Notes: a model not told the origin generated them from the sequence alone. A DNA stretch of 64,000 bases from a virus (IMGVR_UViG_3300046507_000282:1-64000), one strand, 5' to 3'. Counted from the first letter of the stretch, positions 315 to 60,981 are shown. Made by a program: numbers and translations.

Positions 315-2911
315 ACCTGTTCGAACATGTGGCATGCGTGCGCCGCTGGCATGACGATCACCTGCATTTCGTTGCAGTATTTGCGGTCGAAATCGAAGTG
401 AGCGCACCCGCCGCAGCGCTCCTCTGTGATTTGCTCCTTCTCCTGAATCAGCTTGTTCAGAATCGGGCTCTGCACCTGAGCGCTATCGCTAATCATAACC
501 TTGCCATCCCCTTCGTCAGCATCGGGAAACAGGAACGCCGTACCGCCGTGCGCGCGAGCCCACGCGACGTTCATCAACATGAAGGCGTAGGAGAAGTGGG
601 GGTCGATACCGACCTTCACCACTTTGCGCCGGAATTTCTTCTCTTCCTCGTCTTGCTCAACAATCAGCGCCGTTCGCGTGAAGTGCTTGAACACGCGTTC
701 GAGGATCGGCCCGAGTTGCTTCGTGCCGCGGATGCCGTTGTCTCCGTCGTCCGTCAGTTCCTGCAGCAATCCCTTCGGATCGGGGAACACGCATACGTGC
801 GCCGTGATGCGCGCGAGCGCCACCTGCATGCTCTTGTACTGGTCGAGCGTGACCGTGTAGCGGTCCTGCTCCTCTTCATCCGTCTTGCGCTCTGCCTTCG
901 TCGGCACGGCATCGCCCCAGCGCAGCGAAGCATCCTGGATGGTTGCGTAGCTCGCGAGAAACACGATGCCCTTGTGCCGGTTCGCGAAGCGGTGCGCATC
1001 GTTGTAATTCGGGAGGGTCTCACAGACGCAGACCTTCACGCCGTACTGCACGATCAGTTCCGAGCATCGCGCGAAGGGGTCGTCCGAATAGATTTCCTCT
1101 GCGTGGACGATTGCCATGTGGCCGCTAGCCAGCCGCTCGCAAATGATGATTACGTTGAACTTGCCCATTTGGTCGATACCGGCGAACGTGCCGCGCGCCC
1201 GGTCCTTCCACTCCACGCCGAGCCGCCGCCCCTCTTCCACGCACTCAGCGAGGATTTCAAGGTTGATCGGGATTTGCGTGGGGTCTGCATACGGCTTGCC
1301 GAGCTTCCGGTTATAGAAGTTCCGCATGTCTGCAGCGTTGTGATACGCCTCAATCATTTCGCGGGCGGAAATGGTCGGCGAAAGAGTCTGCGGAAAATGG
1401 ACGGATCGGTTGATGGCGTCCGGATTCTTCGCGATCCACTCGCCGCGCTGCGTGTCGTCAATCCAGCCGTCGCATTCCTTGCACTTGTAGCGATACTCGC
1501 CCGTGAGCCCGGCTTCGCGCTCGCGCTCATTCACGCGCAGCGCAGTCGGATCGTAGCCAATGCACGCCGGGAAGTTTTCATCTAGCACCTGCTTGACGAG
1601 GCAGTGCGGGCACTCCGTATGGAACTGGTATTGCTTCCCCTTTTTGAACCACCAGTGAATGTCGCCGTCGGGAAGGTTCGCGGTCGAGCCCATCAGCGTG
1701 TACTTCATTTTCGACGCCGACATACGCTCGCGGACCTTCTCCATGTCCGCGATCACCATTTCCTGCACTTCGTCAAAGCTAACCACGTCCATCGGATTCG
1801 ATTCCGTGGCCGTCTTGCCCGATGTCCAGAGGAAGTGATACCGCGATTCGCCGATGTTCCGCGTGAGCACGTTGCCGTCGCCGGTAACGCCGGATTCGGC
1901 GAGGCCCTCTTTCATCAGCCGGCGCACGGCGGGGATGGTCCGAACAATCGCCATGAAGCGGTGCGTTGACTTGCCCGCGGCGAGCATTTGCGACGGCATG
2001 AACATGCCGATCTTGGACGACGGGAAGCGCAGACCCAGGTAGATCATGGCGAGCATTTCCATGACCGTGAAACCCACCTGCGTACACTTCATGATGATAT
2101 CGACGCGCTGGTAGGCGTCTTTGACCGTGTGCGGAATCAGGTCGTAAATGAAGTGCATCGCCGGGCGATCATCCAGGCGGAACGGGTAGCCGTCCACGCG
2201 CAGCCCCTCGCGCGACAGGCGCTCACACCACTCGCGAAAGGTTTCGTCCGGGCCGATGATCTGCTGGCCGGGCGTCAGGTCAATCGGCGCATCCACGAAC
2301 TCGCCGAGGCGCTCTTGCCGGAACGTGTCGAGCGACATGTTCGCGCGGTCGAACTCGATAGCCGCGCGGTCGGCGTGTGGGTTACCTTCGCTCTTGAGTT
2401 GGAATGTCTCCCAGTCGCGTCCTGCGCCCCTGTACAGGGCCGCGAACGGCCCGCGCAGGCCCATGGGCTTACCGAAGTACCAAACCCGCCCATGGCGGTT
2501 TAAATGGACGCTCTCATGGAATTCCTGCACCCGGTCGATCTTGTGCGCGTCGTCCACGACGATAAGGTGGAACTCGTCGTAAATCGGTTCGGGCTTGTCG
2601 CGCGGAATGAACTTGATCGAGCCGCCGTTCACCAGGTCCCAGCGCATGTGCTCAGGACGGTTGATAAGCAGCGGGCGGATGACGCGCAGCAGCGCGGCCT
2701 TCATACGCTCCACGTCGTCGTCAGTGGGCACGACGAGCGCCGTCCTGAAGCCGTTGAGCGCGCCGAAGTGGGAAATCAGTAGGGTAACGAGCGCGAGCGT
2801 CGTCTTGCCTGAGTCGTTTCCGCCATGGACCAAGTTAAAGCGCGCAGTGCTGGCAAATGCCTGCGACTGCGCGCCGAAGAGAAGTGGAAGCCTGATTTCG
2901 TGCTGCTGCAC
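311..2911 (-). CDS. terL: Terminase large subunit (GpA-type) with an extra N-terminal terminase-type ATPase domain
   Basis: GpA motifs KCTQVGFT, VVSFDE, GSTA, CPHC/CKEC, FYNRKLGKPY, GIDQ; N-terminal GGNDSGKT / IVVDDAH / NPH...FRQERLGEF. Confidence 0.9.
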   Translation of the reverse strand: MQQHEIRLPLLFGAQSQAFASTARFNLVHGGNDSGKTTLALVTLLISHFGALNGFRTALVVPTDDDVERMKAALLRVIRPLLINRPEHMRWDLVNGGSIKFIPRDKPEPIYDEFHLIVVDDAHKIDRVQEFHESVHLNRHGRVWYFGKPMGLRGPFAALYRGAGRDWETFQLKSEGNPHADRAAIEFDRANMSLDTFRQERLGEFVDAPIDLTPGQQIIGPDETFREWCERLSREGLRVDGYPFRLDDRPAMHFIYDLIPHTVKDAYQRVDIIMKCTQVGFTVMEMLAMIYLGLRFPSSKIGMFMPSQMLAAGKSTHRFMAIVRTIPAVRRLMKEGLAESGVTGDGNVLTRNIGESRYHFLWTSGKTATESNPMDVVSFDEVQEMVIADMEKVRERMSASKMKYTLMGSTANLPDGDIHWWFKKGKQYQFHTECPHCLVKQVLDENFPACIGYDPTALRVNEREREAGLTGEYRYKCKECDGWIDDTQRGEWIAKNPDAINRSVHFPQTLSPTISAREMIEAYHNAADMRNFYNRKLGKPYADPTQIPINLEILAECVEEGRRLGVEWKDRARGTFAGIDQMGKFNVIIICERLASGHMAIVHAEEIYSDDPFARCSELIVQYGVKVCVCETLPNYNDAHRFANRHKGIVFLASYATIQDASLRWGDAVPTKAERKTDEEEQDRYTVTLDQYKSMQVALARITAHVCVFPDPKGLLQELTDDGDNGIRGTKQLGPILERVFKHFTRTALIVEQDEEEKKFRRKVVKVGIDPHFSYAFMLMNVAWARAHGGTAFLFPDADEGDGKVMISDSAQVQSPILNKLIQEKEQITEERCGGCAHFDFDRKYCNEMQVIVMPAAHACHMFEQV

Positions 2912-2948
2912 TGTGACGCCTCAAAAATCGTTGAGCTACATGCGATTT

Positions 2949-2963
2949 ATGCTGGCGTCACGA
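2949..2963 (-). promoter_or_regulatory. Putative late promoter TCGTGACGCCAGCAT (terL)
   Basis: Conserved 15-mer found upstream of nine late-type genes. Confidence 0.7.
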
Positions 2964-2966
2964 CGG

Positions 2967-3200
2967 CTAATCGACGTTCTGTTGCGTTTCGTTGACCCAT
3001 GCGGATTCGGTCGCAACCAGCCATGCGGTTCCGACTTCGACGTACGTGTAGGTTTTGACACGGACGATAGCGCCCTGCTCGATGCACGTATCGGTCAGGC
3101 GATTGCCGTTCGTGTCGTAGGTGTATGCATGCGGCAGGGCGGCCGGCTCGAACGGCTTGCCCAGGTTGTCCTTGACGACGACGCGCATCGGTGCGGCCAT
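2967..3200 (-). CDS. Small late protein with one YD-repeat-like motif
   Basis: YTYDTNGNRLTDT; AAGGAA RBS; late motif upstream. Confidence 0.65.
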   Translation of the reverse strand: MAAPMRVVVKDNLGKPFEPAALPHAYTYDTNGNRLTDTCIEQGAIVRVKTYTYVEVGTAWLVATESAWVNETQQNVD

Positions 3201-3236
3201 GGCTATTCCTTTTGGAAGTGGTGTATGGATGCCATG

Positions 3237-3251
3237 ATCGTCACGTCACGA
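3237..3251 (-). promoter_or_regulatory. Putative late promoter TCGTGACGTGACGAT
   Basis: Matches late motif consensus. Confidence 0.6.
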
Positions 3252-3259
3252 ACGCAATA

Positions 3260-3285
3260 GAAAAAGCCCGCGCGAGGCGGGCTTT
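3260..3285. terminator. Rho-independent terminator
   Basis: aaaaagcccgcgcgaggcgggcttt hairpin with flanking A/T runs. Confidence 0.75.
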
Positions 3286-3311
3286 ATTGGGCTGAAAGTA
3301 GCGTTGCTGGG

Positions 3312-3662
3312 TCAGTTCATTGCGTGGGCGATTATTCCGTTCGCCACTTGCTCTGCGCACTTGTCCATGTCTACCTTTTCGCCGACCGTGGCAGCCGCCG
3401 ACAACTGGCAGATTTTCCTGGCCTGAGCGACGATCTGCGCCTTGGCGTCGTCCATTTGCGCAACTGCTTGCGCGGGATGCGGATCGCTAGACAGCGGGCG
3501 ATTCTGTTCATGTCCGTAGACAAGAATGTCAGTGTCAACCGTAGAGGCTTGCGACTGCGCCACGGCATCCGGCGAGTACGTTGCTCGCTCGGCTCGCTGC
3601 GCACCATACGCTAGGGCGAAAACAGCCAAGGCGGCGATTGATACGGCGATTGCTTTTTTCAT
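3312..3662 (-). CDS. Exported hypothetical protein
   Basis: N-terminal signal/TM MKKAIAVSIAALAVFALAYG. Confidence 0.7.
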   Translation of the reverse strand: MKKAIAVSIAALAVFALAYGAQRAERATYSPDAVAQSQASTVDTDILVYGHEQNRPLSSDPHPAQAVAQMDDAKAQIVAQARKICQLSAAATVGEKVDMDKCAEQVANGIIAHAMN

Positions 3663-3835
3663 GACTGGGGTCCCTCGCTGGTTTTAGTGCGAGCATTGTA
3701 TTTTGCTCGAAAAGCGGGCGCAAGATAATCGTTGCACCGTCAATTTCTTTGTGCCGAGCAGATATGTCAATAAAAAAGGGGCGGCTTTGGGGCCGCCCCA
3801 AACACACGCGCTAGACGGGGGACCGCCCGCGCCCT

Positions 3836-4018
3836 TTACAACGCTGTCAGTTTGATGGAGCGATTCAGTTCCTGCAGGTATTGCAGGATCGGGACCGCTT
3901 CATATTTCGGCTTCGGGGCGGACACCGCGCGTTCGTTGAACGTCTCACAGATGACGCGCCCCGTCTCTTTCTCGCGGATGACCCATGAGGCCGTCCGCGA
4001 CAGGCTTTGCGTGAACAT
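3836..4018 (-). CDS. Hypothetical phage protein
   Basis: Coupled ORF in operon, ASWVIREKETG. Confidence 0.6.
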   Translation of the reverse strand: MFTQSLSRTASWVIREKETGRVICETFNERAVSAPKPKYEAVPILQYLQELNRSIKLTAL

Positions 4019-4239
4019 CAGCGCGCCAGAGTCAGTTCGTACAGCATCCCCTTTTCAATCGACATATCGACCGTGCCAGTGCGCCCGGGAAAGCACGCGA
4101 TGGAGCAGATGAAGTCGAAGGGGCCTTTGTACGCCAGCAACTGGACAATCGGCTGATCGCCGAACCAGGTGCGCACAACATCGCCCACCTTCAGTTCGGG
4201 ACCGAGCTTCCGGGCCACGATTGGGCTTTTCTCGCTCAT
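4018..4239 (-). CDS. Hypothetical protein
   Basis: Overlapping start/stop coupling with both neighbours. Confidence 0.6.
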   Translation of the reverse strand: MSEKSPIVARKLGPELKVGDVVRTWFGDQPIVQLLAYKGPFDFICSIACFPGRTGTVDMSIEKGMLYELTLAR

Positions 4240-4631
4240 GCGCCCCTCTGCTTGACGTAGGCAAGCGCCTGTTGAGCTATTGCGCGGGCCGCTGACAACT
4301 CATGTTCCTTGTACGCAATGCACGCGGCCATGAGGTACTTCGACTGCAACGAGTCTCCATGCACGTCGATATCGCCAGCGGCCTCCATGATGGCCTTCAC
4401 CGCCGCCTGATCTTCCTTGCTGAAGTCGTGGCCGATCCACTCCTGCGCCTCGCCACTGCCATCGCCGTAGGAATGGACGCCGGTACGCGAATCGTAGAAT
4501 CCGACATCGGCGCGTAGTTCCGCGCTATAGGTGAAATCGCGGAACACGTACACGCCGGGATGCGGCTCGGTCACGATGGCCGTCACGTTGCCGTTTGCGA
4601 CTACGCGCGCCTTTGCTTGATTCAGGTTCAC
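4236..4631 (-). CDS. Hypothetical protein
   Basis: GAGG RBS, coupled to downstream ORF. Confidence 0.65.
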   Translation of the reverse strand: MNLNQAKARVVANGNVTAIVTEPHPGVYVFRDFTYSAELRADVGFYDSRTGVHSYGDGSGEAQEWIGHDFSKEDQAAVKAIMEAAGDIDVHGDSLQSKYLMAACIAYKEHELSAARAIAQQALAYVKQRGA

Positions 4632-4764
4632 TGTCAGTCATCCTCGCAGTAGAAATCGACCGCCAGGCTGTATTGGGGGTCTAGGATGCGCACGACACTC
4701 CCGAAGTCATCGGTTGTTTGCCGTGCGAGCCAGAGCGCCGTGAAAAACAGGTCGCTCGGCATGT

Positions 4765-5127
4765 TCAGCGCTGCGGGTGCTTGCGGAAGCCGTGGCGCGG
4801 ACGCGTGCCGTACGCCGGGACCTCCTGCAACTCCTCCATGACGTGCCAGACTTGCATGTAGGCGTCGTGCAGGTGGCGATCCTTCGTGCTGCCCTTGAAG
4901 TTCGTATAGTCGATTTGCATCAGCGATGCGGCGATCACCTGGCCCGCGATGTCGCGGCGGATGAAGGCACGGAACTGATAATCTCGGCCCGGAATCGTGG
5001 TCACTTCGACCGACGGTCCGAACACGGCTTCGAGGTCGCCGTGACGACGGGCGCGAACCATCAGAACGGTATCGTCGCGGTCGCTGTTGACGATGGACAG
5101 GAAGGCGTTATTAAGCATGATCCACAT
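4765..5127 (-). CDS. Phage hypothetical protein
   Basis: MWIMLNNAFLSIV...VRAR...DYQFRA...IDYTNFK; GAGG RBS. Confidence 0.75.
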   Translation of the reverse strand: MWIMLNNAFLSIVNSDRDDTVLMVRARRHGDLEAVFGPSVEVTTIPGRDYQFRAFIRRDIAGQVIAASLMQIDYTNFKGSTKDRHLHDAYMQVWHVMEELQEVPAYGTRPRHGFRKHPQR

Positions 5128-5152
5128 GGTAGGAGTCCTCAAAAAGTTAGGC

Positions 5153-5314
5153 TTATTTTTTATCGCGGTTGATGCGGCAGATGTATTCCCGGTCGTCCTT
5201 GCTCAGTTCAATGGGCTTGACGGGACGGAGCACCAGGCGCACCACCACGAAAACGGTCAGAAGAAACAGGTCACACGCGAGGAACAGCAGAAACAGAATC
5301 GTGTTGTTGTCCAT
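5153..5314 (-). CDS. Small membrane protein
   Basis: Single hydrophobic segment, GGGGAG RBS. Confidence 0.55.
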   Translation of the reverse strand: MDNNTILFLLFLACDLFLLTVFVVVRLVLRPVKPIELSKDDREYICRINRDKK

Positions 5315-5425
5315 CGCTCCCCCGTGTGTTGTTTCGTTCAGTGAGGCTATTGTATTCTGCCTTTCTGGAAGAATCAATAGCCTTTGTGCTTTTTGCGCAG
5401 ATTTATTTTCGAGCGAAAACGGCGG

Positions 5426-6118
5426 TTAGAACAGATTGGTGCGATACGTGGCCATCAGCACCTGCGCGCCTGTTGCGAGCCCCGGCGTGCCGGTACTCCA
5501 ATCGGGGCGAATCTGATAGTAGCGATACGACAGCGAGAGATTGCCGCGCGATACGTTCGCGCCAGCGACGTAGCCGAACTGTGCCTTGGGATCGTGCTTG
5601 AAATGGTCCCAGTTATTCCCCAGGTCATACAGCGACTCGTGCCACGTCTGCCAATACACCCACGCGCCACCTTCAACGCCGAACCGGAAGCCGCGCCACG
5701 TATAGCCCACGTCGAGCGTCAGGGGCACGCCTTGCGTATGGCCCTGACCATTGAACGGGCTGTAACGCTCGCCAGCGGGCATGTTATGCACCGTGTGCGT
5801 CACAGGGTTGTAGTTGGCATCAGGCACGCCGTCAACGCTGGCCGTGTACGTGCCGAGATAGACGTAATCTGAGTGATAGCGAACATCGACGTTGCCACGT
5901 TGATAGAGCTTGCCCGTGAAGCCCGCCATCAGCGCCGGGCTGTTCAGATGCTCCTGATTGTTCTTCGCACCCTCTTGAATCCATGTGCCGTCGCCCATGT
6001 CGCTAACATGGCTTGCGCCGATACCGGCCTCTAGCTGAAACCAGCTTTCTGCATTTGCATGCGTTGCTTGCATTGCCATTGCTGAAACGAAAACACCAGC
6101 GATAACTGCCTTCATCAT
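5426..6118 (-). CDS. Outer-membrane beta-barrel protein
   Basis: Signal peptide ending ANA, alternating aromatic/Gly strands (LDVGYTW, LSLSYRY), C-terminal Phe. Confidence 0.7.
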   Translation of the reverse strand: MMKAVIAGVFVSAMAMQATHANAESWFQLEAGIGASHVSDMGDGTWIQEGAKNNQEHLNSPALMAGFTGKLYQRGNVDVRYHSDYVYLGTYTASVDGVPDANYNPVTHTVHNMPAGERYSPFNGQGHTQGVPLTLDVGYTWRGFRFGVEGGAWVYWQTWHESLYDLGNNWDHFKHDPKAQFGYVAGANVSRGNLSLSYRYYQIRPDWSTGTPGLATGAQVLMATYRTNLF

Positions 6119-6160
6119 TGCTGCCAGCCCTCTTGTCTGTTGAAAGTGAGGCTAGTTTAT

Positions 6161-6177
6161 TCTGCTCGATACGCAGA
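6161..6177. promoter_or_regulatory. Putative repressor operator TCTGC-N7-GCAGA
   Basis: Perfect palindrome, recurring in intergenic promoter regions. Confidence 0.65.
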
Positions 6178-6209
6178 TGCAAGCACTTTCTTCGCAGAAG
6201 GAAGATTTG

Positions 6210-6779
6210 TTACAGGGGCCGCAGGATGGTCCCGAACTGGCGGAAGTGCTCGGCGAACCGGCCAACGTCGCTATTCGTCGTGAAGTAGAGAAACGCCTGC
6301 CCGCGCGTGTTGGCGCGCTCGGCTTTGCCGTCCGTGTTGTAGAACTGGATGCGATGGTCAGTGAAGCAGATCGCGGATGCCTGAGCGGACAGTGCGCGGA
6401 ACATGCGGGTTTCCGTGGCGTTGTTCACCAGGACGATGCCGCGCTTGAACCGCTCGTAATCGAAGGCTTCCAGAAAGCGCGTGGCCGCATCGAGCGCAGG
6501 AGCGCCGGAATACGGCGGGTTCATCCAGCAGGAACCCACCTTCGGCCACGACACGCCGCGCGTCGGGTTCGGGTTGTCGAGCGTGCAGTACACGTCGGCG
6601 CACACGATCTGCTGCGCGTCGTCGCTGCTGTACGGGTCGAATCCGATTCCGCCGAGCACGGCGCGGGCCGCCTCGATGTACTTTGGCGGCGTGAACCACG
6701 CATCGGAATCGAGCCTCTTCGCGCCCGGCGAGCTACCCACGTAGCCGAGCGCGGCAGGGTTATCGGCGCGGCGCATCAT
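6210..6779 (-). CDS. Phage DNA N6-adenine methyltransferase (phage Dam family)
   Basis: DAWFTP, FDPYSS, WMNPPYS motifs. Confidence 0.88.
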   Translation of the reverse strand: MMRRADNPAALGYVGSSPGAKRLDSDAWFTPPKYIEAARAVLGGIGFDPYSSDDAQQIVCADVYCTLDNPNPTRGVSWPKVGSCWMNPPYSGAPALDAATRFLEAFDYERFKRGIVLVNNATETRMFRALSAQASAICFTDHRIQFYNTDGKAERANTRGQAFLYFTTNSDVGRFAEHFRQFGTILRPL

Positions 6780-8320
6780 TTGAGTTTCATCAGGTCGGCG
6801 CGGCGGGCGATCAGCTTGCGGGCCAGCTCCGCCTTCTGTTCGGGGTTGCCGGGCCCGAAGTCCATGACGAGCGACTTGATCTTGTCAGGGCTCACGCTCG
6901 CGACCTTGTTGACGCCGTTCAGCAGTTCCTTGTGCGTGATGCCGCCAAAGACGCTCGATGCCTGTGGATTCGTGCCGTCCGTCAGGGTGTCCAGTTCGCC
7001 CACCTTGTCGCCGAAGTGCTTGCCCTTGGGCTCGCCCTGCGCTCGAAACACCAGCGATCCGCCCACGTCCACGCGCACCGCGTTGCCGTCCCTGTCCTGC
7101 AGCAGGTTGTCATGCGCCAGCCCCACCACGTCCCAATTGGCGAGCCATGCATCCACGGCGAAGCCGTCCATGACGCTCTCGTTGCCCTCACCGAAGTCTT
7201 CGAGCTTGTCGAGCCCCGGGACGATCTTCGACGCGATGGCGGTTTTGTCGCCGACCGTGACTTCCTTCAGTTCCGGCACCTTCACGCCGGCCGCCTCGTA
7301 GAGCTTCCCAGCGAGAATCTCGTTGCGCGCGATGGCGGTTGACTTCGGGACTTTCACGTACCAGTCATGACCTTGCGGGTCTTTGAAAAAGCCGCCCGGG
7401 TTCGAGCCGAGTTGCTTGCCCGTCTTTTTCCAGTCGTCCACCGACTCGCGCAGCGGGCCGCTCGGCGTCAGGCCAGCCAGATCGGCAAGCGTGCGGTCGT
7501 ACTGGCGGTTCGCTGCGGCGTGGACCTTCCCGGGCGGCACCAGCATGACGGCCTGCGTCTCCCATCCGCAATCCGTCGGCGAGCCGCCCACGCGCCGCGC
7601 GCTGTAGTAGCGCGTCATGGTCTGGCCGCGTTCCACGTCGCCGACGAGCCCGGTAATCTCCACCTGAAGCCCGGACTCCTCAAACGCCTCTTTGATGGCC
7701 GTCGCCTGCAGATTGATGCCGTCGTCAGCGTGGCCCTTCGGGAACGTCGTGGCGTAGCCTGCAAAGCCGTTGGACGGCTTTACCATCCACACGCGGCCAT
7801 CGGGCTCGGTAATGAGCACGCCAGCGGCGGGCTCTTTGCCCTTCAGGTCCATTTCCGGTTCTTCGAGATCGGGCATTTGCCCTTCGACGTGCTCCCAGCC
7901 CTCGATGGTTTTCGGATGGCCGGTCCACGGCGCGAGAGCGACGCCATTCAGCTTCGCGGGGGCGTGGCCGCCCGGCGTGAAGGTCGCCGTCACCTGCGGA
8001 TCGTTCCAGGTGGACGTGTCGGATTGCTGCGAGGGGTATTTGACGACTACGTGCTTGCCGTCGTCGTCGCGCTTCGGATGGTTGATCGCGCCGGGCGGCA
8101 TGGCCCATGCGGGGTGCAGCGCATCCTTACCTTTCGGCTTGGACGCGAGCTTCTCGGCGGAATGCGTGGCGTTGCCGTGCAGCGAGTTGGTCCACTTTTT
8201 GGGCTGCGCTGCCTTGACGGCCTTTACCTGCTTGACTGCGCTGGTGTCGTATTCCTTGACGACCGTGCCATCGCGCTTCGTGTACTGCTTGACGTGGGCT
8301 TTGCTGAAGAGGAGGAGCAT
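6776..8320 (-). CDS. Polyvalent protein: N-terminal tag + Nudix hydrolase + HipA/PI3K-like kinase
   Basis: Nudix box FPKGHADDGINLQATAIKEAFEESG; kinase GSNPGG, WYVK, NE, DAWLANWD...DN, RVDVGG. Confidence 0.85.
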   Translation of the reverse strand: MLLLFSKAHVKQYTKRDGTVVKEYDTSAVKQVKAVKAAQPKKWTNSLHGNATHSAEKLASKPKGKDALHPAWAMPPGAINHPKRDDDGKHVVVKYPSQQSDTSTWNDPQVTATFTPGGHAPAKLNGVALAPWTGHPKTIEGWEHVEGQMPDLEEPEMDLKGKEPAAGVLITEPDGRVWMVKPSNGFAGYATTFPKGHADDGINLQATAIKEAFEESGLQVEITGLVGDVERGQTMTRYYSARRVGGSPTDCGWETQAVMLVPPGKVHAAANRQYDRTLADLAGLTPSGPLRESVDDWKKTGKQLGSNPGGFFKDPQGHDWYVKVPKSTAIARNEILAGKLYEAAGVKVPELKEVTVGDKTAIASKIVPGLDKLEDFGEGNESVMDGFAVDAWLANWDVVGLAHDNLLQDRDGNAVRVDVGGSLVFRAQGEPKGKHFGDKVGELDTLTDGTNPQASSVFGGITHKELLNGVNKVASVSPDKIKSLVMDFGPGNPEQKAELARKLIARRADLMKLK

Positions 8321-8347
8321 CGTGACGCCTTATGACTGGTTTAACCC

Positions 8348-8362
8348 AGTCTGGCGTCACGA
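8348..8362 (-). promoter_or_regulatory. Putative late promoter TCGTGACGCCAGACT in an RBS-occluding hairpin (8319-8363)
   Basis: Motif plus 11-bp inverted repeat ATCGTGACGCC/GGCGTCACGAT covering RBS and start. Confidence 0.7.
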
Positions 8363-8369
8363 TCACCCC

Positions 8370-8843
8370 TTAATACTTGACGCCCAGCAGGCGCTTCGTC
8401 ACGTCATCCATCATGTCGTCCATGGTGGCCTTGATTTCCGCTTCCGGCGTGCCATCGTTCATTTCCTGCGTCAGCGTCATGGTCTGCGCCGCCACCCACA
8501 TGAAGAACCCCGTACCGGGGTCGCCAAAGGCGATAGTTTCTTCCGGAACCAGCACGCGCATGACGTTGCCGAGCCGGTTCGGCGTATTCCACGGCTGTGC
8601 ATCAAAGCGCTCGTCATGGCCTTGGAAAATATCACTGAGCAGCTTAGCCTCTGCAGTGATCGCCGGGAGCGGGTCGCGGTCGCCCTTCCCTGCGCGGAAG
8701 TCGGAGTATGCACCGATGCAGAACTTGGCGAAGTTGCGTACCAGCCACGAGACCGTGTGCAGATCGCCCAGCGACGGCTTCCCAGTCGCCACCAGGTCGT
8801 CCAGATAAAGCCCCGTCGGGGGCAGTTGCTTGGCTTCGCTCAT
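8370..8843 (-). CDS. Hypothetical acidic protein coupled to the large polyvalent protein
   Basis: ATGA overlap with 8840 stop; helical and acidic. Confidence 0.75.
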   Translation of the reverse strand: MSEAKQLPPTGLYLDDLVATGKPSLGDLHTVSWLVRNFAKFCIGAYSDFRAGKGDRDPLPAITAEAKLLSDIFQGHDERFDAQPWNTPNRLGNVMRVLVPEETIAFGDPGTGFFMWVAAQTMTLTQEMNDGTPEAEIKATMDDMMDDVTKRLLGVKY

Positions 8844-11800
8844 TTATTCACCTTCGTAAGATTGTCAACGTAAGTCGGGTCAGGCGGCAGCATCAGAACT
8901 TCCAGTTCAAGACGCGGGGCTTTTTTGGACGACCCATGCTCAACGTCGGCGACCATTTTACGCGAAAGGACCATGAACCGCGCGCCGGGCAGCGTCGTGA
9001 TTTCCGCCTCTCCTGAGAAGCCGCCAGAACCGAATGTATCGGTCGCCGCGGCACCCTCTGCATAGTGGATCACAACACGATGCTTGCCAAACCCGCTCGT
9101 CGCCGTATCGTGCTGCGACGTACACATGGAACCCGGGTTCTGGAAAACCAGGCCCTCGGGGTTATCAAGGAACTGACTCACCATTTCATCGGACATTTCA
9201 ATCCACTTATTGATCGTCGTGCCCTCCTTGTGAGAGACAGCCGTTTTGTACAGGTCATCGAGAACCGTACGCGTTTTCTGGCCTTGGTTATCGGTTTCCT
9301 TGCCGTCGCGATACGGCTGGTTGTTCGAGCCAGAACCCTGCACCGCCTTAATGAACGTCGTAACGGTTTCTGGCAGCTTCTTAAACGCGTCGTAGGCCGC
9401 CTTCTTTGCCGCCTCTGTGAGCTTCACGCCTACGGTCTTCGGCCTGAACTTCTCAGGCGAATCCGCAACGCCCAGCGCGATCCAGAATCCCAGGCGCTCG
9501 CTTGCCTTCACGTCGGCAATCGAAACTCCATAGTCGTGCGGCTTGAACAGCGCAGACAGGGACGCCAGCGTGCTCGCCTTCTTAGCCGTGAAGTTGCGCA
9601 TCGGCTCGGGCGGGTTTGCAACCGTGTCCAGGTACGACACGACAGAGTCGTAATACTGCTTCACGTGATTCGAGCCGTGCTCACCAATCGGCTTCTTATC
9701 GCCAACAGCCTCGCCGGTCAACTTGTCAACCGGCTGAAACTGGTATTTCTTCAGCGCGATCAGGTCGCCCTTCAGCGCGAAGTCAAGGATGTCTTGCTCG
9801 GCCTTGATGTTGTGCTGTACGTACGGCTTGTCAGAGATCGGCTTGCCAGAGCCGCCCCAGTTCATGAAGTCGTGCATCGGCGGTACGAGCGCCGGGTTGA
9901 TTTTCAGGTTGCGCGGGTCCGGTTTCGCCTTATCGCCCTGCGCGCCAGCTTCCTTCTTTGCCTTGGCGGTCGGATACTGCTCGCTCATGTTGTGCTTGCG
10001 TGCGATCAACTTCGCGGCGAGGCGCGTCTTCTCGCTCGCCGAGCCCGGCCCGAACTCCATTACCAAGCCTTCGATTTCATGGTCAGGAATGTTGGCGATC
10101 TTTGCGACGGAGGCCGTGATGTCCGCGGCGCTCATTTTCCCGAACACAGCAGCCGTGTTGGCGTTCTTCGCCGGGTCCAGCATCGTCTTGAGGTCGGTTA
10201 CCTCGTTCTCGAAAGTCTGCTTCTTACCGCCTGCGCCGCCGTACAGCAGAGCGCCGCCCGCATCGATGCGCACAGCCGATCCATCGGGCTTGAAGAGGAT
10301 GTTGTCGAACCCCTTCCCGGCAGCCGGGTTGTTGCCCACCGTGTCCCAGTTCGCCAGCCATGCGTCGGCAGCGAAGCCAGACAGCAGGCCCGGCGCTTTT
10401 CCTTCGAGCAACGCGGACTTGTTCGCCACCGCGCCATCGATGATCTTCGACGCTAGCCCGATCTTGCCGCCCTGGTTGACGAGCTTGACTTCCGGAACTT
10501 CGACGCCAGCCAGCGCATACAGTTTCGTCGCAAGAAGTTCGTTTTTCACGATCTTCTCGCCGCCAGCCGGGAACTTGACGTACCACTTCTGGCCGCTCGC
10601 GTCCTCGAACGTGCCGCCCGGGTTGTAGCCTCCCTGCGGACCTACCTGCTTCCATCCATCCACGGATTCGGTTTCGGTCTTCGTCGTGCCCACCACCTTT
10701 GACGCGGCCTTCTTCGGTGCGGTAGCGGCAGCAGCCTCGCCGGCTCCTGTTGTGCCCGCCATAGCAGCCTTCAGAGCGAGCGCGTAGGCCGCCAGCGCCT
10801 TGCCGTTTTCGCTGGCATTGCCCGGCGCACCCTCTTTCCAGATTCCCCACTTGCCATCGTCCCCAGCGTCGATCATGACCTTGTGGCCGTTCGGCTTGCT
10901 GTCATAGATCGCCTTGTCGAGCCCAGCATCGCCATCCTTCAGGGCGATGGCTTGAAGCGCCTTGACCGTCTTGTTCATCTTGACGGAATTTTTGCCCTCA
11001 AACTTCGGCTTTGCTACCGACGCCACCTTCTTTACGAGTTCCTTTGGATCAGTGGCCTTCGGCTCGTCGCCACCCTGCTTGTGCCAGCGCCCATCCTTGA
11101 ACACCAGCATGCCGTCGGCACCCTGCTTCGTGTCGCCTTCCTTGGGGCCGCTATCGGCAGCGCCTGGCTGCTTCTCTGCCCACTCGGCGAGCGCGGAAGC
11201 ATATTGCTCCTCGGCGTCCTGCTGCGTCCCGGCGTCCACCTTGGCGAAGTTCTTCAGCTTCTCGATACCCTCTGCACCCTGCGTCGTCGCCCACTTCTTC
11301 AGGGTTTTGGCGGTCCCTTCATCGACGCCAGCCGACGGCTCAGGCATAACGCTCTGATCGGCTGAACCGATATGCTTCGCCTCTTCGCCCAGCGACGCGA
11401 GCGCATCCTTGGCGTATGCGGCGATCTTCTTATCATCCAGGTTGTTACCGGCGTAATCGAACGCACTGTAATAGTCCTGAAGGTTGCTCACTTGGCCGCC
11501 AACATGGCCGACGGCGCTACCCTTCGTAGTCAGGTCATGAATGGCCTTGGCGGCGTCTTTGTGAAGGTCACTCATGTCTGCGGTATCGAGGACCGGAAGC
11601 GACGGCGCAGAATCTGCGGTCATCTTCGTCGCGAGTTCGCCGATCTTCTTCGCGGCGTGCTCGGCGGTCTTCTGCATGCCGTTCTTCGCGGCGTAGGCTG
11701 CAATGTCCTTCAGCGTCTGCATGTCGCCCTTCTCGGCGGCAGCGTTGATGTCATCGAACAGGCCGCCAGTCGGCTCGGCGGCAGGCTTCGCGCCCATCGC

Positions 11801-13483
11801 GATCAGCACATTGCCGATCCAATCTTTGACTTCCGGAATGATTCCGTCTACCGCTTGCAGTTTCTTCAGGGCATCCGCATCGCCGTTGGCAGCATGCTTT
11901 GCAACAGAGTCCCATGTCTTCGGACCCATGCCATCCGGATGCGCGAGCAACGCGTCGGAAACAGCCTTCGGAAGTTCCGTGTCGGGAGCGGGAATGTCGG
12001 CTGGCGCGGACTCCATCGCGGGCTCATTGCCTTTGGCGTGCGCGAGCGCGGCATCGTAGAACGCCATCAGCGTCTTCGAGTTCGCCGTCTTGCCCTTCCA
12101 CGTGTTGCCGACCTTGCCGTTCTTCGGCGTCAGGCCGTCAGCCTTCATGTCTTCGAGCACCTGCACGTTTCCGGCTTCGGCGTGCTCTTTGATCTTCTTC
12201 GCGACTTTCGCGTAGTGCTCGGCATACTTGGTTTCGCCATCCTTGCTCGGGGCGAATTCGGGCACAGAGAGGCCGCCAGCGGTCGCTGCAGCGGCTTGCT
12301 CGCCTTGCTTGACCCAATGGCCGTCTTTGAGCACCAGCGTGCCGTCAGCGCCTTCCTTGGTATCGCCCTCTTTCGTGCCTTCGTCGGCAGCAGCGACCTT
12401 CGACGCGGCCAGCTTCTTCGACTCGGCCGCCAAGTGAGCGGTCGTAGCTTCAGACGGCTTTGCTGGGTTGAGCCACGACGGAGTCGGCTTCGCATCGGGC
12501 GCGGCGGCAGCGGGCTCCTGTTTCTTCTCACCTTCGTCCTTCAGCGCTGCATGCTCGCCCATCTTTTGGCCGGGCGCGACCGTGTGCTTCGAGCCCATCG
12601 CGGCGAGCGCCTCGTTGGCGAGCTTTGCAGCCTGCTTGCCGTACGTGTGCGACTGATAGCCGTGATTCAGGATGTCTTTCGGGTTGTCCGTCACCAGCGC
12701 GTGCGCAATCGCGTCCAGCTTCTTCTTCATGCCGGGCGTGATGTGATGGTCGGACGGCAGCTTCGCCTTGGCGGCTTCGATCTTATCGAGCACCGCGGCC
12801 TTCGCGTCGTTCTCAGCGCCGAGCTTCGCGCCCGTGGGCGGCTCTGACTTCGGTTCCGGCTTGGGCTCGGGTTTGGGTTCCGGCTTCGATTCTGGCTTGG
12901 GCTCAGGAGCGGGTGCAGCGGGCTTCGCTTCCTCTTTGGCCGCAACCACCTTCGGCGCTTCCTTTGGAGCCTCCTGCGCGGCTTCTGGCTCATCCTTGGG
13001 CGCACTCGCCTTCCATTGTTGGAAGCCCTCTGCGAACTCGTGCCACTTCCCGGCCTGCTTGAATGCCTCGCCAAACTCTTCCTGCTTCGCGCCGGGCAGC
13101 GAATGAAACGCCTTCCACTCGGCATTAATCGGCTTCTCGCCGGCAAGAATCTTTTTCTTCAGCGCGTTGGCGCGCGAGAGCATCGATGCCTTGTGTTGGA
13201 TCGCGGTCGCCTCTTTCAGGACGTGCGCCACCTTATGGTCGTGAGGCATCGCATTGAACCAGTCCTTTTTGGACAGCTTCTTATGCGCTTCCTTCTCGGT
13301 GTAGTTGCCTTGACCGGCGACAGCCTTGTGCTCGTCGTGGTCGGTCGAAACGTTGACCCAGTGCATGTGCCCGGCGACGGGCGTGCCATCGCGCTTGGTG
13401 TAGCCCGGAATCCACACCTGTTTCTTCGTCACCGCTTTCATGAAAAGCAGCAAAGGTGCGTACGGGCGAATGTCGTCGTTCAT
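8840..13483 (-). CDS. Large polyvalent (probably virion-internal) protein: tag + Ala/Lys-rich region + HipA/PI3K-like kinase + C-terminal ADP-ribosyltransferase-like domain
   Basis: Kinase GGYNPGG, WYVK, NE, DAWLANWD...DN, RIDAGG; ART-like GSMCTS and GEAEITTLPGARF; start set at ATG 13483 behind a GGGG RBS. Confidence 0.8.
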   Translation of the reverse strand: MNDDIRPYAPLLLFMKAVTKKQVWIPGYTKRDGTPVAGHMHWVNVSTDHDEHKAVAGQGNYTEKEAHKKLSKKDWFNAMPHDHKVAHVLKEATAIQHKASMLSRANALKKKILAGEKPINAEWKAFHSLPGAKQEEFGEAFKQAGKWHEFAEGFQQWKASAPKDEPEAAQEAPKEAPKVVAAKEEAKPAAPAPEPKPESKPEPKPEPKPEPKSEPPTGAKLGAENDAKAAVLDKIEAAKAKLPSDHHITPGMKKKLDAIAHALVTDNPKDILNHGYQSHTYGKQAAKLANEALAAMGSKHTVAPGQKMGEHAALKDEGEKKQEPAAAAPDAKPTPSWLNPAKPSEATTAHLAAESKKLAASKVAAADEGTKEGDTKEGADGTLVLKDGHWVKQGEQAAAATAGGLSVPEFAPSKDGETKYAEHYAKVAKKIKEHAEAGNVQVLEDMKADGLTPKNGKVGNTWKGKTANSKTLMAFYDAALAHAKGNEPAMESAPADIPAPDTELPKAVSDALLAHPDGMGPKTWDSVAKHAANGDADALKKLQAVDGIIPEVKDWIGNVLIAMGAKPAAEPTGGLFDDINAAAEKGDMQTLKDIAAYAAKNGMQKTAEHAAKKIGELATKMTADSAPSLPVLDTADMSDLHKDAAKAIHDLTTKGSAVGHVGGQVSNLQDYYSAFDYAGNNLDDKKIAAYAKDALASLGEEAKHIGSADQSVMPEPSAGVDEGTAKTLKKWATTQGAEGIEKLKNFAKVDAGTQQDAEEQYASALAEWAEKQPGAADSGPKEGDTKQGADGMLVFKDGRWHKQGGDEPKATDPKELVKKVASVAKPKFEGKNSVKMNKTVKALQAIALKDGDAGLDKAIYDSKPNGHKVMIDAGDDGKWGIWKEGAPGNASENGKALAAYALALKAAMAGTTGAGEAAAATAPKKAASKVVGTTKTETESVDGWKQVGPQGGYNPGGTFEDASGQKWYVKFPAGGEKIVKNELLATKLYALAGVEVPEVKLVNQGGKIGLASKIIDGAVANKSALLEGKAPGLLSGFAADAWLANWDTVGNNPAAGKGFDNILFKPDGSAVRIDAGGALLYGGAGGKKQTFENEVTDLKTMLDPAKNANTAAVFGKMSAADITASVAKIANIPDHEIEGLVMEFGPGSASEKTRLAAKLIARKHNMSEQYPTAKAKKEAGAQGDKAKPDPRNLKINPALVPPMHDFMNWGGSGKPISDKPYVQHNIKAEQDILDFALKGDLIALKKYQFQPVDKLTGEAVGDKKPIGEHGSNHVKQYYDSVVSYLDTVANPPEPMRNFTAKKASTLASLSALFKPHDYGVSIADVKASERLGFWIALGVADSPEKFRPKTVGVKLTEAAKKAAYDAFKKLPETVTTFIKAVQGSGSNNQPYRDGKETDNQGQKTRTVLDDLYKTAVSHKEGTTINKWIEMSDEMVSQFLDNPEGLVFQNPGSMCTSQHDTATSGFGKHRVVIHYAEGAAATDTFGSGGFSGEAEITTLPGARFMVLSRKMVADVEHGSSKKAPRLELEVLMLPPDPTYVDNLTKVNK

Positions 13484-13506
13484 GAGTACCCCATTGGAAT
13501 AGGGGT

Positions 13507-13521
13507 AGCTTGGCGTCACGA
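13507..13521 (-). promoter_or_regulatory. Putative late promoter TCGTGACGCCAAGCT
   Basis: Motif; downstream TACCCC/GGGGTA hairpin covers the RBS. Confidence 0.7.
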
Positions 13522-13539
13522 TCACACGGTTCAGAAACG

Positions 13540-13560
13540 AAAAAACCGCCCGAAGGCGGC
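13540..13560 (-). terminator. Rho-independent terminator
   Basis: ccgcccgaaggcgg hairpin with T-run on the minus strand. Confidence 0.65.
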
Positions 13561-13564
13561 ATTC

Positions 13565-15691: not shown

Positions 15692-15700
15692 TGTTTTGCC

Positions 15701-16072: not shown

Positions 16073-16099
16073 AGAAACCCCTTCAATTCATTTACACGA

Positions 16100-16114
16100 A
16101 GGGTCGCGTCACGA
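16100..16114 (-). promoter_or_regulatory. Putative late promoter TCGTGACGCGACCCT
   Basis: Motif; CCCTTC/GAAGGG hairpin covers the RBS. Confidence 0.65.
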
Positions 16115-16185
16115 ATTCAGGGGCCAATCATGGTGATCGGAGATTGTCCGATTAGGACAAGGTTTAGATGGCGGCAGGATAAATG

Positions 16186-16214
16186 AAAAAGGCCCGGGGA
16201 TTAGCCGGGCCTTC
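16186..16214 (-). terminator. Rho-independent terminator
   Basis: aaaaaggcccgg...ccgggcctt. Confidence 0.7.
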
Positions 16215-18694: not shown

Positions 18695-18711
18695 CGTTCA
18701 AAACTCCAAGG

Positions 18712-27872: not shown

Positions 27873-28021
27873 GTTGTCACCTGTTGTCCGTGTGTTTCAT
27901 CAGCACCCACTCTAGGGTCACGACAACGCGAAACACCGACAACACCGACAACAAGCGGCAACTGGGCGATACCGGATTCCCATGTTGAATTTGAGAAACA
28001 AGGCGACAACATACCGACAAC
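27873..28021. repeat. Cluster of CGACAAC direct repeats and inverted GTTGTC copies
   Basis: CGACAAC at 27921, 27937, 27946, 28004, 28015; GTTGTC at 27873, 27883. Confidence 0.7.
27909..27923 (-). promoter_or_regulatory. Putative late promoter TCGTGACCCTAGAGT (terS)
   Basis: Matches late motif. Confidence 0.6.
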
Positions 28022-46259: not shown

Positions 46260-46452
46260 AAAATTCTCTGAAAATGGTTGTTGAGCCGCAATTATGCTGG
46301 GCAAGCAGATTTAAGGCAAGGCAGTACGGTCTGACCCCGTGAAATAGCGGAGAAATGAAACTTGTATCTGAGTTGCATCAAAGCAACAATTTAGCGACTG
46401 CTTATTGAAATCTAATTGAAAGTTTTACTGAATGTTACAGGGGAGTCTCTAA

Positions 46453-57997: not shown

Positions 57998-58005
57998 GAA
58001 TCCCC

Positions 58006-58489: not shown

Positions 58490-58753
58490 ATGAGTCAGGA
58501 AGATACCGCGCAAATCCATGAGGCTATGGATTGGGAGCGCAACAACCGCCCGCGCGAGGTCGCCGCGACGTTCGCACCAGCAGACAAGGGATACGGCCCA
58601 GCGACGTGCAACGGGCGCGAGAAGCGCACCGGGCCGGGCGTGCAATTGGAGGATGATTGCGGGGAAGAGTTGCCGCCCCTGCGTCGCGCAATGGGGCGGC
58701 ATTTGTGCGTGGCCTGCCAGGAGTTGCTTGAGGCAGGAAGGCTGTTCGGCTAA
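58490..58753 (+). CDS. TraR/DksA-like zinc-finger protein
   Basis: DCGEELP..RRA....CVACQE. Confidence 0.7.
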   Translation: MSQEDTAQIHEAMDWERNNRPREVAATFAPADKGYGPATCNGREKRTGPGVQLEDDCGEELPPLRRAMGRHLCVACQELLEAGRLFG

Positions 58754-59805: not shown

Positions 59806-60027
59806 TTATGCTGGCGTCACGTCCGTCTTGACAGCGACAGGAGCGTTGCGCGACAACCACTTCTGAATGAGCCAGTGGCCTGCAGTGACGACGCCGATAG
59901 CAATGGATACCTGTTCCTGCGGATCGATTCCGAGCTTCCAGTGAGCATCGAGAACGCCGAGCGCGGCAACGAGGCCAGCGGTGATTGCGCCAGCCGCGCC
60001 GGTTGCAGCGGGAGAGGTTTGGTTCAT
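59806..60027 (-). CDS. Small two-TM protein (holin candidate)
   Basis: Two hydrophobic segments, next to the endolysin; AGGAG RBS. Confidence 0.6.
   Translation of the reverse strand: MNQTSPAATGAAGAITAGLVAALGVLDAHWKLGIDPQEQVSIAIGVVTAGHWLIQKWLSRNAPVAVKTDVTPA
59808..59822 (-). promoter_or_regulatory. Putative late promoter ACGTGACGCCAGCAT
   Basis: Shares CGTGACGCCAGCATAAAT with the terL promoter. Confidence 0.65.
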
Positions 60028-60044
60028 AAGTACTCCTATTCGAA

Positions 60045-60557
60045 TTAATGCGAGGTATGACAGAGAGAACAATGCGCACCCAGCCTGAAAAGTGCGGCTT
60101 CGGCACTGCGCCGCTTCACAAGCCCGGCCAGCACCTTTCCGCCTGCCTTATTCCACACCGAGAACTGCGCAATCGCGCCATCGATGTCGCCGGCATTCAA
60201 AAGGCGCAGAAGCGTCGATCCGTCGAAGTTGCCCGTACCGATGTTGAATGTCAGATCGCACAGCGCAATGAACTCGTCTTGCGTAAGCGGTATTTCCACC
60301 ACTGCGCGGACATTCGCTTCGGCTACCGACATGTCCTTCAGAAGCTGCGCATCCGCTTGCTCCTGAGTCCATACAAGCCCTTCGTGGACTTCGGGGCCGG
60401 TATGCCCCCAGCCGACAGTCCACGGAGCCCCTGAAGACCCCCTTCCTAGCGCGAGCGGAGAAGCTGGGTCCGGGTATGCCTTGAGCCTGCAGCTTTCGCT
60501 CTGCTTTGTGATGGTCAGGTCGCCAGCACCGAGCACAAGCCCGCTATTGACGCCCAT
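60045..60557 (-). CDS. Endolysin (GH24 lysozyme)
   Basis: SE.CRLKAY.D, WTVGWGHTG, FNIG.GNF..STLL, GLVKRR.AE. Confidence 0.93.
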   Translation of the reverse strand: MGVNSGLVLGAGDLTITKQSESCRLKAYPDPASPLALGRGSSGAPWTVGWGHTGPEVHEGLVWTQEQADAQLLKDMSVAEANVRAVVEIPLTQDEFIALCDLTFNIGTGNFDGSTLLRLLNAGDIDGAIAQFSVWNKAGGKVLAGLVKRRSAEAALFRLGAHCSLCHTSH

Positions 60558-60907
60558 TACTTGTCCTGCTTCGTGTCTACTTTCCCGTAGAGATCCTTGA
60601 ACCCTTGGCGCGTCTCCTGCATGTTGTCTTTGACGGCCTGCACGAGAGAGCCAATGGTTACCTCAAGGTTTTTGATTGCCGTCGTCAGGCCCTCTTGCGT
60701 CACGTATGTGCGGGCGCAGTAGAGTTGATGGGCAGCAAGGGCTTCAGAAGCCCTCTTCGCGTCTTCTGAGGCCGCCTTCGCCGCATCAGCGCCAGCCGTA
60801 GCCTCCTGCTTCAGGTCCCGAATCATGTATGTGGCAAAGAAGCCGATGATCAGGAAGAGAACGTTGATAACCGCGAGGGCTACTTCAAAAATCTGTTTGC
60901 TATCCAT
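60557..60907 (-). CDS. Membrane-anchored coiled-coil protein (holin/antiholin candidate)
   Basis: N-terminal TM plus coiled coil, coupled to the endolysin. Confidence 0.6.
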   Translation of the reverse strand: MDSKQIFEVALAVINVLFLIIGFFATYMIRDLKQEATAGADAAKAASEDAKRASEALAAHQLYCARTYVTQEGLTTAIKNLEVTIGSLVQAVKDNMQETRQGFKDLYGKVDTKQDK

Positions 60908-60966
60908 TAAAAATCCAATGAGTGAAAAGGGAAAAGTGAGGCCCTCTATGTGGCTCATTGGATTTC

Positions 60967-60981
60967 ATGTTGGCGTCACGA
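60967..60981 (-). promoter_or_regulatory. Putative late promoter TCGTGACGCCAACAT (lysis operon)
   Basis: Motif; AAATCCAATGAG/CTCATTGGATTT hairpin next to the start codon. Confidence 0.7.

Follow-up and report, generated by a model that had tools for sequence, protein, structure and literature searches.

A clade-wide box resembling a late promoter and its proposed coupling to translation in large temperate myoviruses

Genome context and occurrence of the box

The viral DNA stretch IMGVR_UViG_3300046507_000282:1-64000, analysed here over its full 64,000 bp (the window), represents bases 1-64000 of a 93,887-bp phage genome having a 127-bp terminal repeat and 60% G+C. The subject of this work is a short box, searched for here as TCGTGA-N4-A-N3-T, which recurs on the minus strand ahead of late-type genes and was proposed in an initial reading of the sequence (the original prediction) to be a late promoter coupled to hairpins that occlude the ribosome-binding site. 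Composition-based gene calls grouped the terminase, ADP-ribosyltransferase/Nudix-type, lysis, tail, baseplate, head and portal genes into leftward (minus-strand) blocks and the recombination, SSB and integrase genes into rightward blocks, with an immunity-like region near 46-47 kb. Among the gene labels given initially, terL, the HU-like protein and the endolysin unit were upheld by homology, and PHROGs gave no support for 'terS', 'oxidoreductase operon' and 'small YD protein'. This genome also encodes homologues of proteins that are annotated as ADP-ribosyltransferase and Nudix in related phages.

The nine minus-strand copies listed at the outset were all recovered at their coordinates by motif search (Table 1). 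Five of them read exactly TCGTGACGCCANNNT, the copy at 59808 begins with A, and those at 3237, 16100 and 27909 deviate in the 'gcc' part. The exact core CGTGACGCCA is found six times in the window, always on the minus strand, against ~0.2 occurrences expected from base composition. Motif scanning of the whole genome, which had been suggested as a check, gave a strong strand bias, TCGTGA-N4-A-N3-T having 18 minus-strand matches and no plus-strand match (Markov-1 expectation ~1 per strand). This pattern catches eight of the nine listed sites, the ninth (59808) being missed as it begins with A, and adds 39509 in the window together with 65495, 69702, 70305, 75739, 79883, 82295, 85865 and 89157 beyond it. 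A further copy at 82513 is the single one inside a credible gene; the other 17 of the 18 lie outside credible genes. Minus-strand starts follow them after either 20-60 nt or 6-7 nt, and the genes downstream are minus-strand virion, packaging and lysis genes. Five boxes (3237, 13507, 60967, 75739 and 82295) stand within ~10 nt after an intrinsic terminator, and the boxes at 27909 and 89157 head divergent units.

The significance is confined to the structured pattern and its strand bias; neither the bare heptamer TCGTGAC nor the 15-mer with two mismatches was enriched over shuffled sequences. At 8320 and 69691, the plus strand has near-matches that represent hairpin 3' arms and not independent copies, and the possibility that these inverted copies serve as divergent promoters was rejected, the A-N3-T part being absent from them.

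Table 1 Late-promoter boxes and associated features. Opening energies (kcal/mol) are predicted values for the long and the short RNA of each site, and the last column gives how many of 16 non-cognate upstream segments reach the cognate value.
Feature	Position	Strand	Sequence or pairing arms	Gene and context	Opening energy, long / short	Non-cognates
terL box	2949..2963	-	TCGTGACGCCAGCAT; 5' arm GTGACGCC (2954-2961) pairs with GGCGTCAC (2913-2920), just before GTG	before GTG start 2911	18.3 / 9.4	0/16
Box	3237..3251	-	CATGGC (3231-3236), GCCATG (3198-3203)	before 77-aa gene (start 3200); directly after intrinsic terminator	no net thermodynamic occlusion	
Box	8348-8362 (element 8319..8363)	-	11-bp stem, ATCGTGACGCC with GGCGTCACGAT, burying the start codon	before Nudix/kinase-like gene (start 8320)	23.2 / 6.1	0/16
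Box	13507-13521 (element 13487..13521)	-	TACCCC, GGGGTA	before large ADP-ribosyltransferase-like gene (start 13483); terminator precedes	15.8 / 5.1	0/16
Box	16100-16114 (element 16079..16114)	-	CCCTTC, GAAGGG	before 123-aa gene (start 16072)	15.6 / 3.5	0/16
Box	27909..27923	-		head of leftward block; 213-aa gene (start 27872)	8.7 / 4.5 (weak)	1/16
Box	39509..39523	-	TCGTGAAACGAACGT	leftward tRNA/non-coding RNA region, between tRNA-Tyr (39801-39885) and tRNA-Asn (39155-39229)		
Box	41686-41700 (element 41652..41723)	-	5' arm TTCCCTTTG (41715-41723), upstream of the box, pairs with Shine-Dalgarno region CAAGGGGAG (41652-41660)	before HU-like gene (start 41644)	21.6 / 9.3	0/16
g75	42568..42945	-		125 aa, partner of g76		
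g76	42948..43523	-		191 aa, candidate specificity factor		
Sigma70-type early promoter	46291..46319	-	TTGCCT-17-CATAAT	before Cro-like helix-turn-helix gene		
Variant box	59808..59822	-	ACGTGACGCCAGCAT	before 125-aa gene (start 59757), then esterase gene	no occlusion	
Box	60967-60981 (element 60911..60981)	-	12-bp stem, AAATCCAATGAG with CTCATTGGATTT, then T-run, then ATG	lysis cassette: 116-aa gene (start 60907), then endolysin; terminator precedes	14.3 / 6.6	0/16
Terminator-hairpin box, ST4	3882-3896					
Terminator-hairpin box, Dolphis	28082-28096					
Terminator-hairpin box, PHB04	90374-90388					
Terminator-hairpin box, ECML-606-1	7544					
Terminator-hairpin boxes, fHe-Yen8-01	30138; 60225					

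Conservation and anatomy of the box

Megablast of window bases 1-20000 against 50,697 phage records returned no match, and relatives were found solely through a TerL protein search, which yielded nine ~90-kb phages at 36-53% identity over the full length (74% of the length for PHB04). These are Aeromonas phage ST4, Pseudomonas phages Touem01, Jeremy and Dolphis, Escherichia phage ECML-606-1, Enterobacter phage phiT5282EW, Yersinia phage fHe-Yen8-01, Morganella phage Mecenats66 and Bordetella phage PHB04. The box occurs with the same bias, towards the strand of the structural genes, in seven of the eight cultured relatives examined, the copies on the structural and the other strand numbering 11 and 1 in ST4, 13 and 1 in Dolphis, 15 and 2 in PHB04, 9 and 0 in ECML-606-1, 8 and 0 in fHe-Yen8-01 and 14 and 2 in Touem01. 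Controls with the reversed pattern gave 0-1 matches in ECML-606-1, fHe-Yen8-01 and Touem01, and the box is also carried by partial IMG/VR relatives.

Pooled alignment of 57 box sites from four genomes, with A-11 and T-7 fixed by the search pattern, gave the consensus G-TCGTGA-(C/T)-G-n-C-A-n-n-A-T, in which 35 of the 57 sites have A before the final T. No -35 element was found in this alignment and no information lies upstream of -22, the G before TCGTGA, in agreement with the initial description of a -10-like xANNNT end, TCGTGAC immediately upstream and no -35. The box GTCGTGAC has dyad arms of 3 bp only and ends 2-3 nt before the hexamer. G is found at -14 in 36 of the 57 sites and T at -15 in 13, with a single instance (65495) among the 18 of this genome, where C is usual; TG at -15/-14 is present in many ST4 and Dolphis sites. 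The early promoters of the immunity region are of the ordinary -35/-10 type. One of them (46291-46319; Table 1) serves an operon of Cro-like, replication, g76, g75 and Ant genes that runs towards the 41686 box and the HU-like gene.

The motif is genuine and shared across the clade, and the box is almost certainly its late promoter. Its make-up supports a promoter without a -35 that would combine a sigma70-type -10 (A-11, T-7) with a specific upstream element, the last six bases forming the hexamer and TCGTGA lying at -21 to -16. As no -35 element is present, host RNA polymerase would need a phage-encoded specificity factor, with contact to TCGTGA replacing the -35.

Beyond the window, a gene at 80328-80783 (genome coordinates) points in the opposite direction to all its neighbours in the structural block, and the same arrangement is seen in ST4, Dolphis and PHB04; this gene has no late box on its own strand.

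Probable start site and putatively leaderless genes

An ATG stands exactly 6-7 nt after the last T of the box at 25 of the 57 pooled sites, compared with a background of 3% (binomial ~3e-23), and in the relatives most boxes are followed by six or seven bases and then ATG, for example at the terL, portal, protease and adaptor genes. Since 6-7 nt is the canonical distance from T-7 to +1, A-N3-T is read as a -10 and the genes as being expressed from leaderless mRNAs. Transcription would begin at about the seventh base after the final T, judging from the -10 geometry and the ATG spacing, and an ATG at +1 implies messages that would lack a leader. This mode, overlooked in the original prediction, dominates in the relatives. 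In the present genome most sites are leadered, and the leaderless layout is found at the baseplate (ATG 69694), adaptor (79876) and protease (85857) genes, whose open reading frames are in-frame N-terminal extensions of the first gene calls. The portal protein begins with Met-Thr in four genomes, its ATG being at +1 in ST4, Dolphis and PHB04 and behind a 16-nt leader here.

Deposited annotations place some such starts further downstream. For example, the ST4 portal (70060-70171) is annotated from 70060 and the box predicts a start at 70150, and the annotated start of the Dolphis gp15 adaptor (14299-14482) lies downstream of an ATG positioned 6-7 nt after the box; in both cases the box suggests a longer, leaderless open reading frame. 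At terL of the present genome, the place taken in relatives by the leaderless terL ATG is occupied, 7 nt behind the box, by a one-codon frame ATG-TAG (2937-2942, minus strand), and the GTG start of terL follows 31 nt beyond it. Escherichia coli and Yersinia phages (L040, L045) have ATG-TTT-TGA at the equivalent place before a different gene. The ATG-TAG could be what is left of a leaderless start, or it could act as a start-stop element.

The strict strand specificity of the box and its closeness to start codons could also be accommodated if it acted in RNA, as a processing site or the operator of a translational regulator, and were no promoter; at 2949, 8348 and 69702 the box indeed forms a stem with its own inverted copy. 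This explanation is very improbable. The five boxes located within ~10 nt after a terminator T-run would rarely be transcribed, and no upstream transcript is present at the two that head divergent units. The ATG follows either after exactly 6-7 nt or, with an ordinary Shine-Dalgarno sequence in between, after a variable 20-60 nt, and the invariant A-N3-T matches the geometry of a -10.

Predicted occlusion of the ribosome site by sequence upstream of the start

Accessibility at the 14 leadered sites of this genome was computed as opening energy, the cost of opening the ribosome site (-15 to +4) according to predicted thermodynamics, both in a long RNA beginning 30 nt upstream of the box and in a short RNA beginning at the inferred +1. 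For specificity control, the upstream segment of each site was replaced by 16 non-cognate segments from other sites. Folding of long versus short leaders had been put forward as a check on the hairpins, and the long form was found to be the costlier one, by a mean of 6.4 kcal/mol at the leadered boxes compared with 1.2 kcal/mol in 89 control genes of this genome (Mann-Whitney p = 1.4e-4). Among these, the 39 whose upstream gap is 40 nt or more average 1.4 kcal/mol (p = 7e-4 against the leadered boxes). The cognate segment beats all 16 non-cognates at seven of the 14 sites (2949, 8348, 13507, 16100, 41686, 60967 and 70305), which gain 7.7-17 kcal/mol in the long RNA, and 27909 constitutes a borderline eighth. 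All six complementarities noted originally are present in their places; the accompanying statement that occlusion applies in most cases has to be narrowed to about half of the leadered sites. As the 5' end of the RNA is walked, accessibility changes in a step, located in the interval from the first box base to the inferred +1 for 2949, 8348, 13507 and 16100 and likewise for 27909, 60967, 65495 and 70305; at 41686 the arm lies upstream of the box.

Cognate-specific occlusion was likewise predicted for relatives, in ST4 for four of six leadered sites and in PHB04 for three of five, with 5' arms that typically begin at -6, directly after the constrained box. Orthologous hairpins differ in sequence and keep their place, as seen from GCCCTCATA/TATGAGGGC in ECML-606-1 versus ACCCTCATA/TATGAGGGT in fHe-Yen8-01, and from the 3237 site, where CATGGC/GCCATG of this genome is replaced by TGACTAT/ATAGTCA at the same place in the relative L027. 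The pairing between the terL box and the pre-start region persists in relatives whose TerL is 85% identical and in one at 61% TerL identity, whose leader is otherwise unalignable, and the 8348 stem is kept in the relatives L023 and L028. A common repressor operator was rejected as an explanation, given that the arm sequences vary from site to site. In relatives, several boxes are followed by a hairpin that is a full intrinsic terminator with its 5' arm at -6 to +2 (Table 1); if the promoter reading is true, transcripts from upstream, and these alone, would end before the gene. Overall, the coupling to translation is statistically supported, as judged from predicted structures and the inferred start site.

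Other genes behind the boxes of the window were also characterised. The 213-aa protein starting at 27872 has an N-terminal DNA-binding or TerS-like region, and its ST4 homologue has a box as well. The N-terminus of the 125-aa protein starting at 59757 resembles a lipoprotein signal peptide with a lipobox. The box at 39509 may provide the last two transfer RNAs with a late promoter of their own.

Candidate specificity factor

The best candidate activator is the product of g76 together with its neighbour g75, and the case for it, built on gene content and position in the early operon, is circumstantial. The g76 protein has invariant Cys/His clusters and the signature CVSCFNRE...KGA.PKKW, and a search of the 50,697 phage records placed it solely in the nine members of the clade sharing the full-length TerL. 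Neither Pfam nor PHROGs had a significant match for g76, and the Atlas gave only unnamed clusters. Its AlphaFold model (predicted local distance difference test score, pLDDT, 82) is a mixed alpha/beta, zinc-type one, for which comparison with the PDB gave no convincing counterpart (Foldseek best E 0.93; VIA-align wide best Z 3.4; profile search against PDB sequences, nothing). The g75 protein has a zinc-ribbon core, is encoded directly after g76 in every relative checked, and its best structural matches are generic zinc ribbons (Elf1, TFIIS) at a weak Z of 3.5-3.7. In ECML-606-1, the g76 and g75 homologues are ECML606-1_000100 and ECML606-1_000099. By tblastn, g76, g75 and SSB are the only non-structural genes detected in ST4, Dolphis, PHB04 and Mecenats66 alike; a phosphatase and a small TraR-like gene are common to ST4, Dolphis and PHB04 and were not detected in Mecenats66. 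An AraC-family regulator annotated beside a box in ST4 and Dolphis was considered as activator and set aside, as it has no homologue in this genome.

Beside the integrase module, a 75-aa gene (58526-58753) is conserved in ST4, Dolphis and PHB04 and annotated as TraR-type in Dolphis; for the copy in this genome, Pfam returned nothing.

A different kind of factor may be envisaged, a minimal sigma-like phage protein that replaces sigma70 and reads the 15-nt element in the way of T4 gp55. The lack of a -35 and the -10-proximal position of the element resemble T4 late promoters (PMC3014915). The adjacent conserved pair of 191 and 125 aa is also similar in size to gp55 and gp33. Such replacement seems rather improbable all the same: the g76 model is not the helical fold of sigma region 2 and has no PDB match, the annotations of ST4, Dolphis, PHB04 and Mecenats66 list neither a sigma nor an RNA polymerase gene, and the retention of A-11 and T-7, along with the TG noted above in many ST4 and Dolphis sites, fits sigma70.

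Close homologues of g76 (P0008, P0016 and P0018) occur in assemblies of Paraburkholderia sediminicola, Pararobbsia silviterrae and Burkholderia anthina; the contigs that carry them measure 89.8-92.6 kb, a size that suggests whole-phage, possibly episomal, prophages. As these homologues lie on ~90-kb contigs in Paraburkholderia, Burkholderia and Pararobbsia assemblies, the host of the phage is probably a member of the Burkholderiaceae.

Proposed mode of action

The explanation that we favour, with a probability of roughly 0.6, is that the box is the late promoter of a clade of ~90-kb temperate myoviruses and that each box gates the translation of its own gene. Two modes would be in use. In the first, the ATG is at +1 and the mRNA would be leaderless; in the second, a 15-55-nt leader with a Shine-Dalgarno sequence would be made, and the ribosome site can pair with sequence that lies in or just after the promoter, upstream of +1. 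A message from the gene's own promoter would be open for translation, and RNA arriving from upstream would have its ribosome site buried, offer an internal AUG without Shine-Dalgarno sequence, or be terminated. Going by the modelled structures, box-initiated messages are probably the only translatable ones, and each late gene's expression would thus hang on the firing of its own promoter. The original prediction had early read-through transcripts as the silenced RNA, which fits 41686, the one site into which a sigma70-type early operon clearly reads; elsewhere the upstream RNA would itself be late, for instance from 13507 into 8348. Since the upstream RNA would often be late itself, the function would be insulation of each late gene rather than discrimination between early and late.

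Several observations weigh against this explanation. Cognate-specific occlusion is absent from six of the 14 leadered sites (3237, 59808, 65495, 75739, 82295 and 89157), the 60967 stem extends partly beyond +1, a part that would still be present in the short RNA, and where a terminator precedes the box there may be scarce read-through to silence. The terL pairing is gone from the close relative L019 and is weaker in L027. With 49% G+C and the greatest distance from the other members, Mecenats66 retains g76 and g75 yet has only two strict box copies, and its upstream regions resemble GTGAT-type elements with near-consensus TATAAT hexamers. The predicted folds of g76 and g75 give no functional match, and the g75 homologue of fHe-Yen8-01 (L032 2046-2390) is annotated as 'particle associated protein'; if that annotation is correct, g75 may be a zinc-ribbon protein carried in the virion. 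Full-text literature searches found no description of promoters of this clade or of this box.

The half of the leadered sites without effect, together with L019, which kept its terL gene and lost the pairing, would suit a reading in which the box is a true late promoter and the hairpins are no translational lock, being instead 5' stabilisers, terminator leftovers, RNase III sites or chance GC-rich structures, with the leaderless spacing a mere matter of genome compactness. The complete terminators with T-runs among the hairpins of several relatives fit transcriptional insulation, and RNase III could cleave the long coaxial stem at 8348. We consider it unlikely, as the 5' arms are consistently located ahead of the inferred +1 and the cognate-specific effect is ~5 times that of control genes. 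The 3' arms, moreover, cover the Shine-Dalgarno sequence or the start codon and not arbitrary positions of the leader, and the sequences of the arms turn over with their positions kept.

Retaining the gating promoter as the preferred explanation, a bolder extension can be put forward tentatively: g76, perhaps with g75, may found a family of zinc-dependent late-transcription factors, and the whole clade may enforce an 'own promoter only' rule on every late gene through three interchangeable devices, namely the leaderless start, the hairpin masking the ribosome-binding site and the terminator with an untranscribed 5' arm. On this extension, g76 would let host RNA polymerase use promoters lacking a -35 by reading TCGTGA at -21 to -16.

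Comparison with known systems

In phage T4, a helix on the long transcripts of genes e, soc, 49 and I-TevI sequesters the Shine-Dalgarno sequence or the AUG, and a late promoter within the DNA encoding the 5' strand of that helix gives rise to late transcripts which lack the strand and are translated (Uzan and Miller 2010, PMC3014915). The arrangement here is alike in that the Shine-Dalgarno sequence and/or the start is predicted to be paired on upstream-derived RNA at seven of the 14 leadered sites. T4 uses the device for a handful of genes, whereas in the present temperate phage its predicted use is far wider, extending to about half of the leadered late promoters. The T4 promoter TATAAATA is read by gp55 with gp33, in contrast to TCGTGA-N4-A-N3-T here, and no search was aimed at a gp55 homologue. 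Unlike T4, this phage joins the hairpins with leaderless starts or embedded terminators at other genes, and the RNA to be silenced would often be late.

The Thermus phages Lalka27a and phiYS40 have many dispersed late promoters without a -35, with a private consensus and a TANNNT-type -10, from which transcription starts 6 bp downstream to give mostly leaderless transcripts, a phage factor being inferred (bioRxiv 10.64898/2026.04.20.719267). The present clade likewise has many -35-less late promoters with a private consensus at or near the -10, 18 in this genome and, counting the strand of the structural genes, 8-15 per relative in seven relatives, and the TerL proteins of the two groups are distantly related at ~25% identity. 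The two groups differ in consensus (TAGGGT with C at -25 in Thermus phages, TCGTGA at -21 to -16 with cAnnaT here), and no g76 homologue was found in the Thermus phages. The hosts here are Proteobacteria, and the leaderless mode alternates with hairpin-gated leaders, unlike in the Thermus phages. Leaderless mRNAs are not known to be the norm in Proteobacteria.

P1, which the original prediction had named as the analogue by way of its Lpa-dependent promoters, is a temperate myovirus of ~94 kb whose ~11 dispersed late promoters each combine a -10 hexamer with a short specific upstream element and are devoid of a -35. The likeness holds for this architecture, and LPpac (ATGTGACTT-tcgt-TACCCT) has the GTGAC core in common with the box. 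It does not extend to the element itself, which in P1 is a 9-bp inverted repeat centred near -22, bound by Lpa and ending 4 nt before the hexamer, whereas the box here is 6-8 nt long, barely palindromic and ends 2-3 nt before it. Neither does it extend to the activator, as tblastn of Lpa (gp10) against this genome, ST4, Dolphis, PHB04 and Mecenats66 gave no homologue (best E 1.9). There are no structural genes in common with P1. By analogy, the clade would combine the logic of T4 gene e with leaderless late mRNAs of the Thermus type, and the promoter box itself appears to be new.

Conclusions

Overall, we present a strand-biased box that almost certainly marks the late promoters of a poorly studied clade of large temperate phages, for which it offers a transcription map; the tractable hosts on which several members are grown are E. 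coli, Y. enterocolitica, P. putida, P. syringae, A. hydrophila and B. bronchiseptica, with P. putida serving for Dolphis and Jeremy. Some annotated start codons of relatives, that of the ST4 portal among them, can be corrected from the box, and together with the hairpins it could be developed into tightly insulated expression parts. It also points to a late-gene activator without known relatives and suggests a general way for prophages to silence virion, lysis and toxin-like genes in the face of stray transcription, in which translation would be tied to where the message starts.

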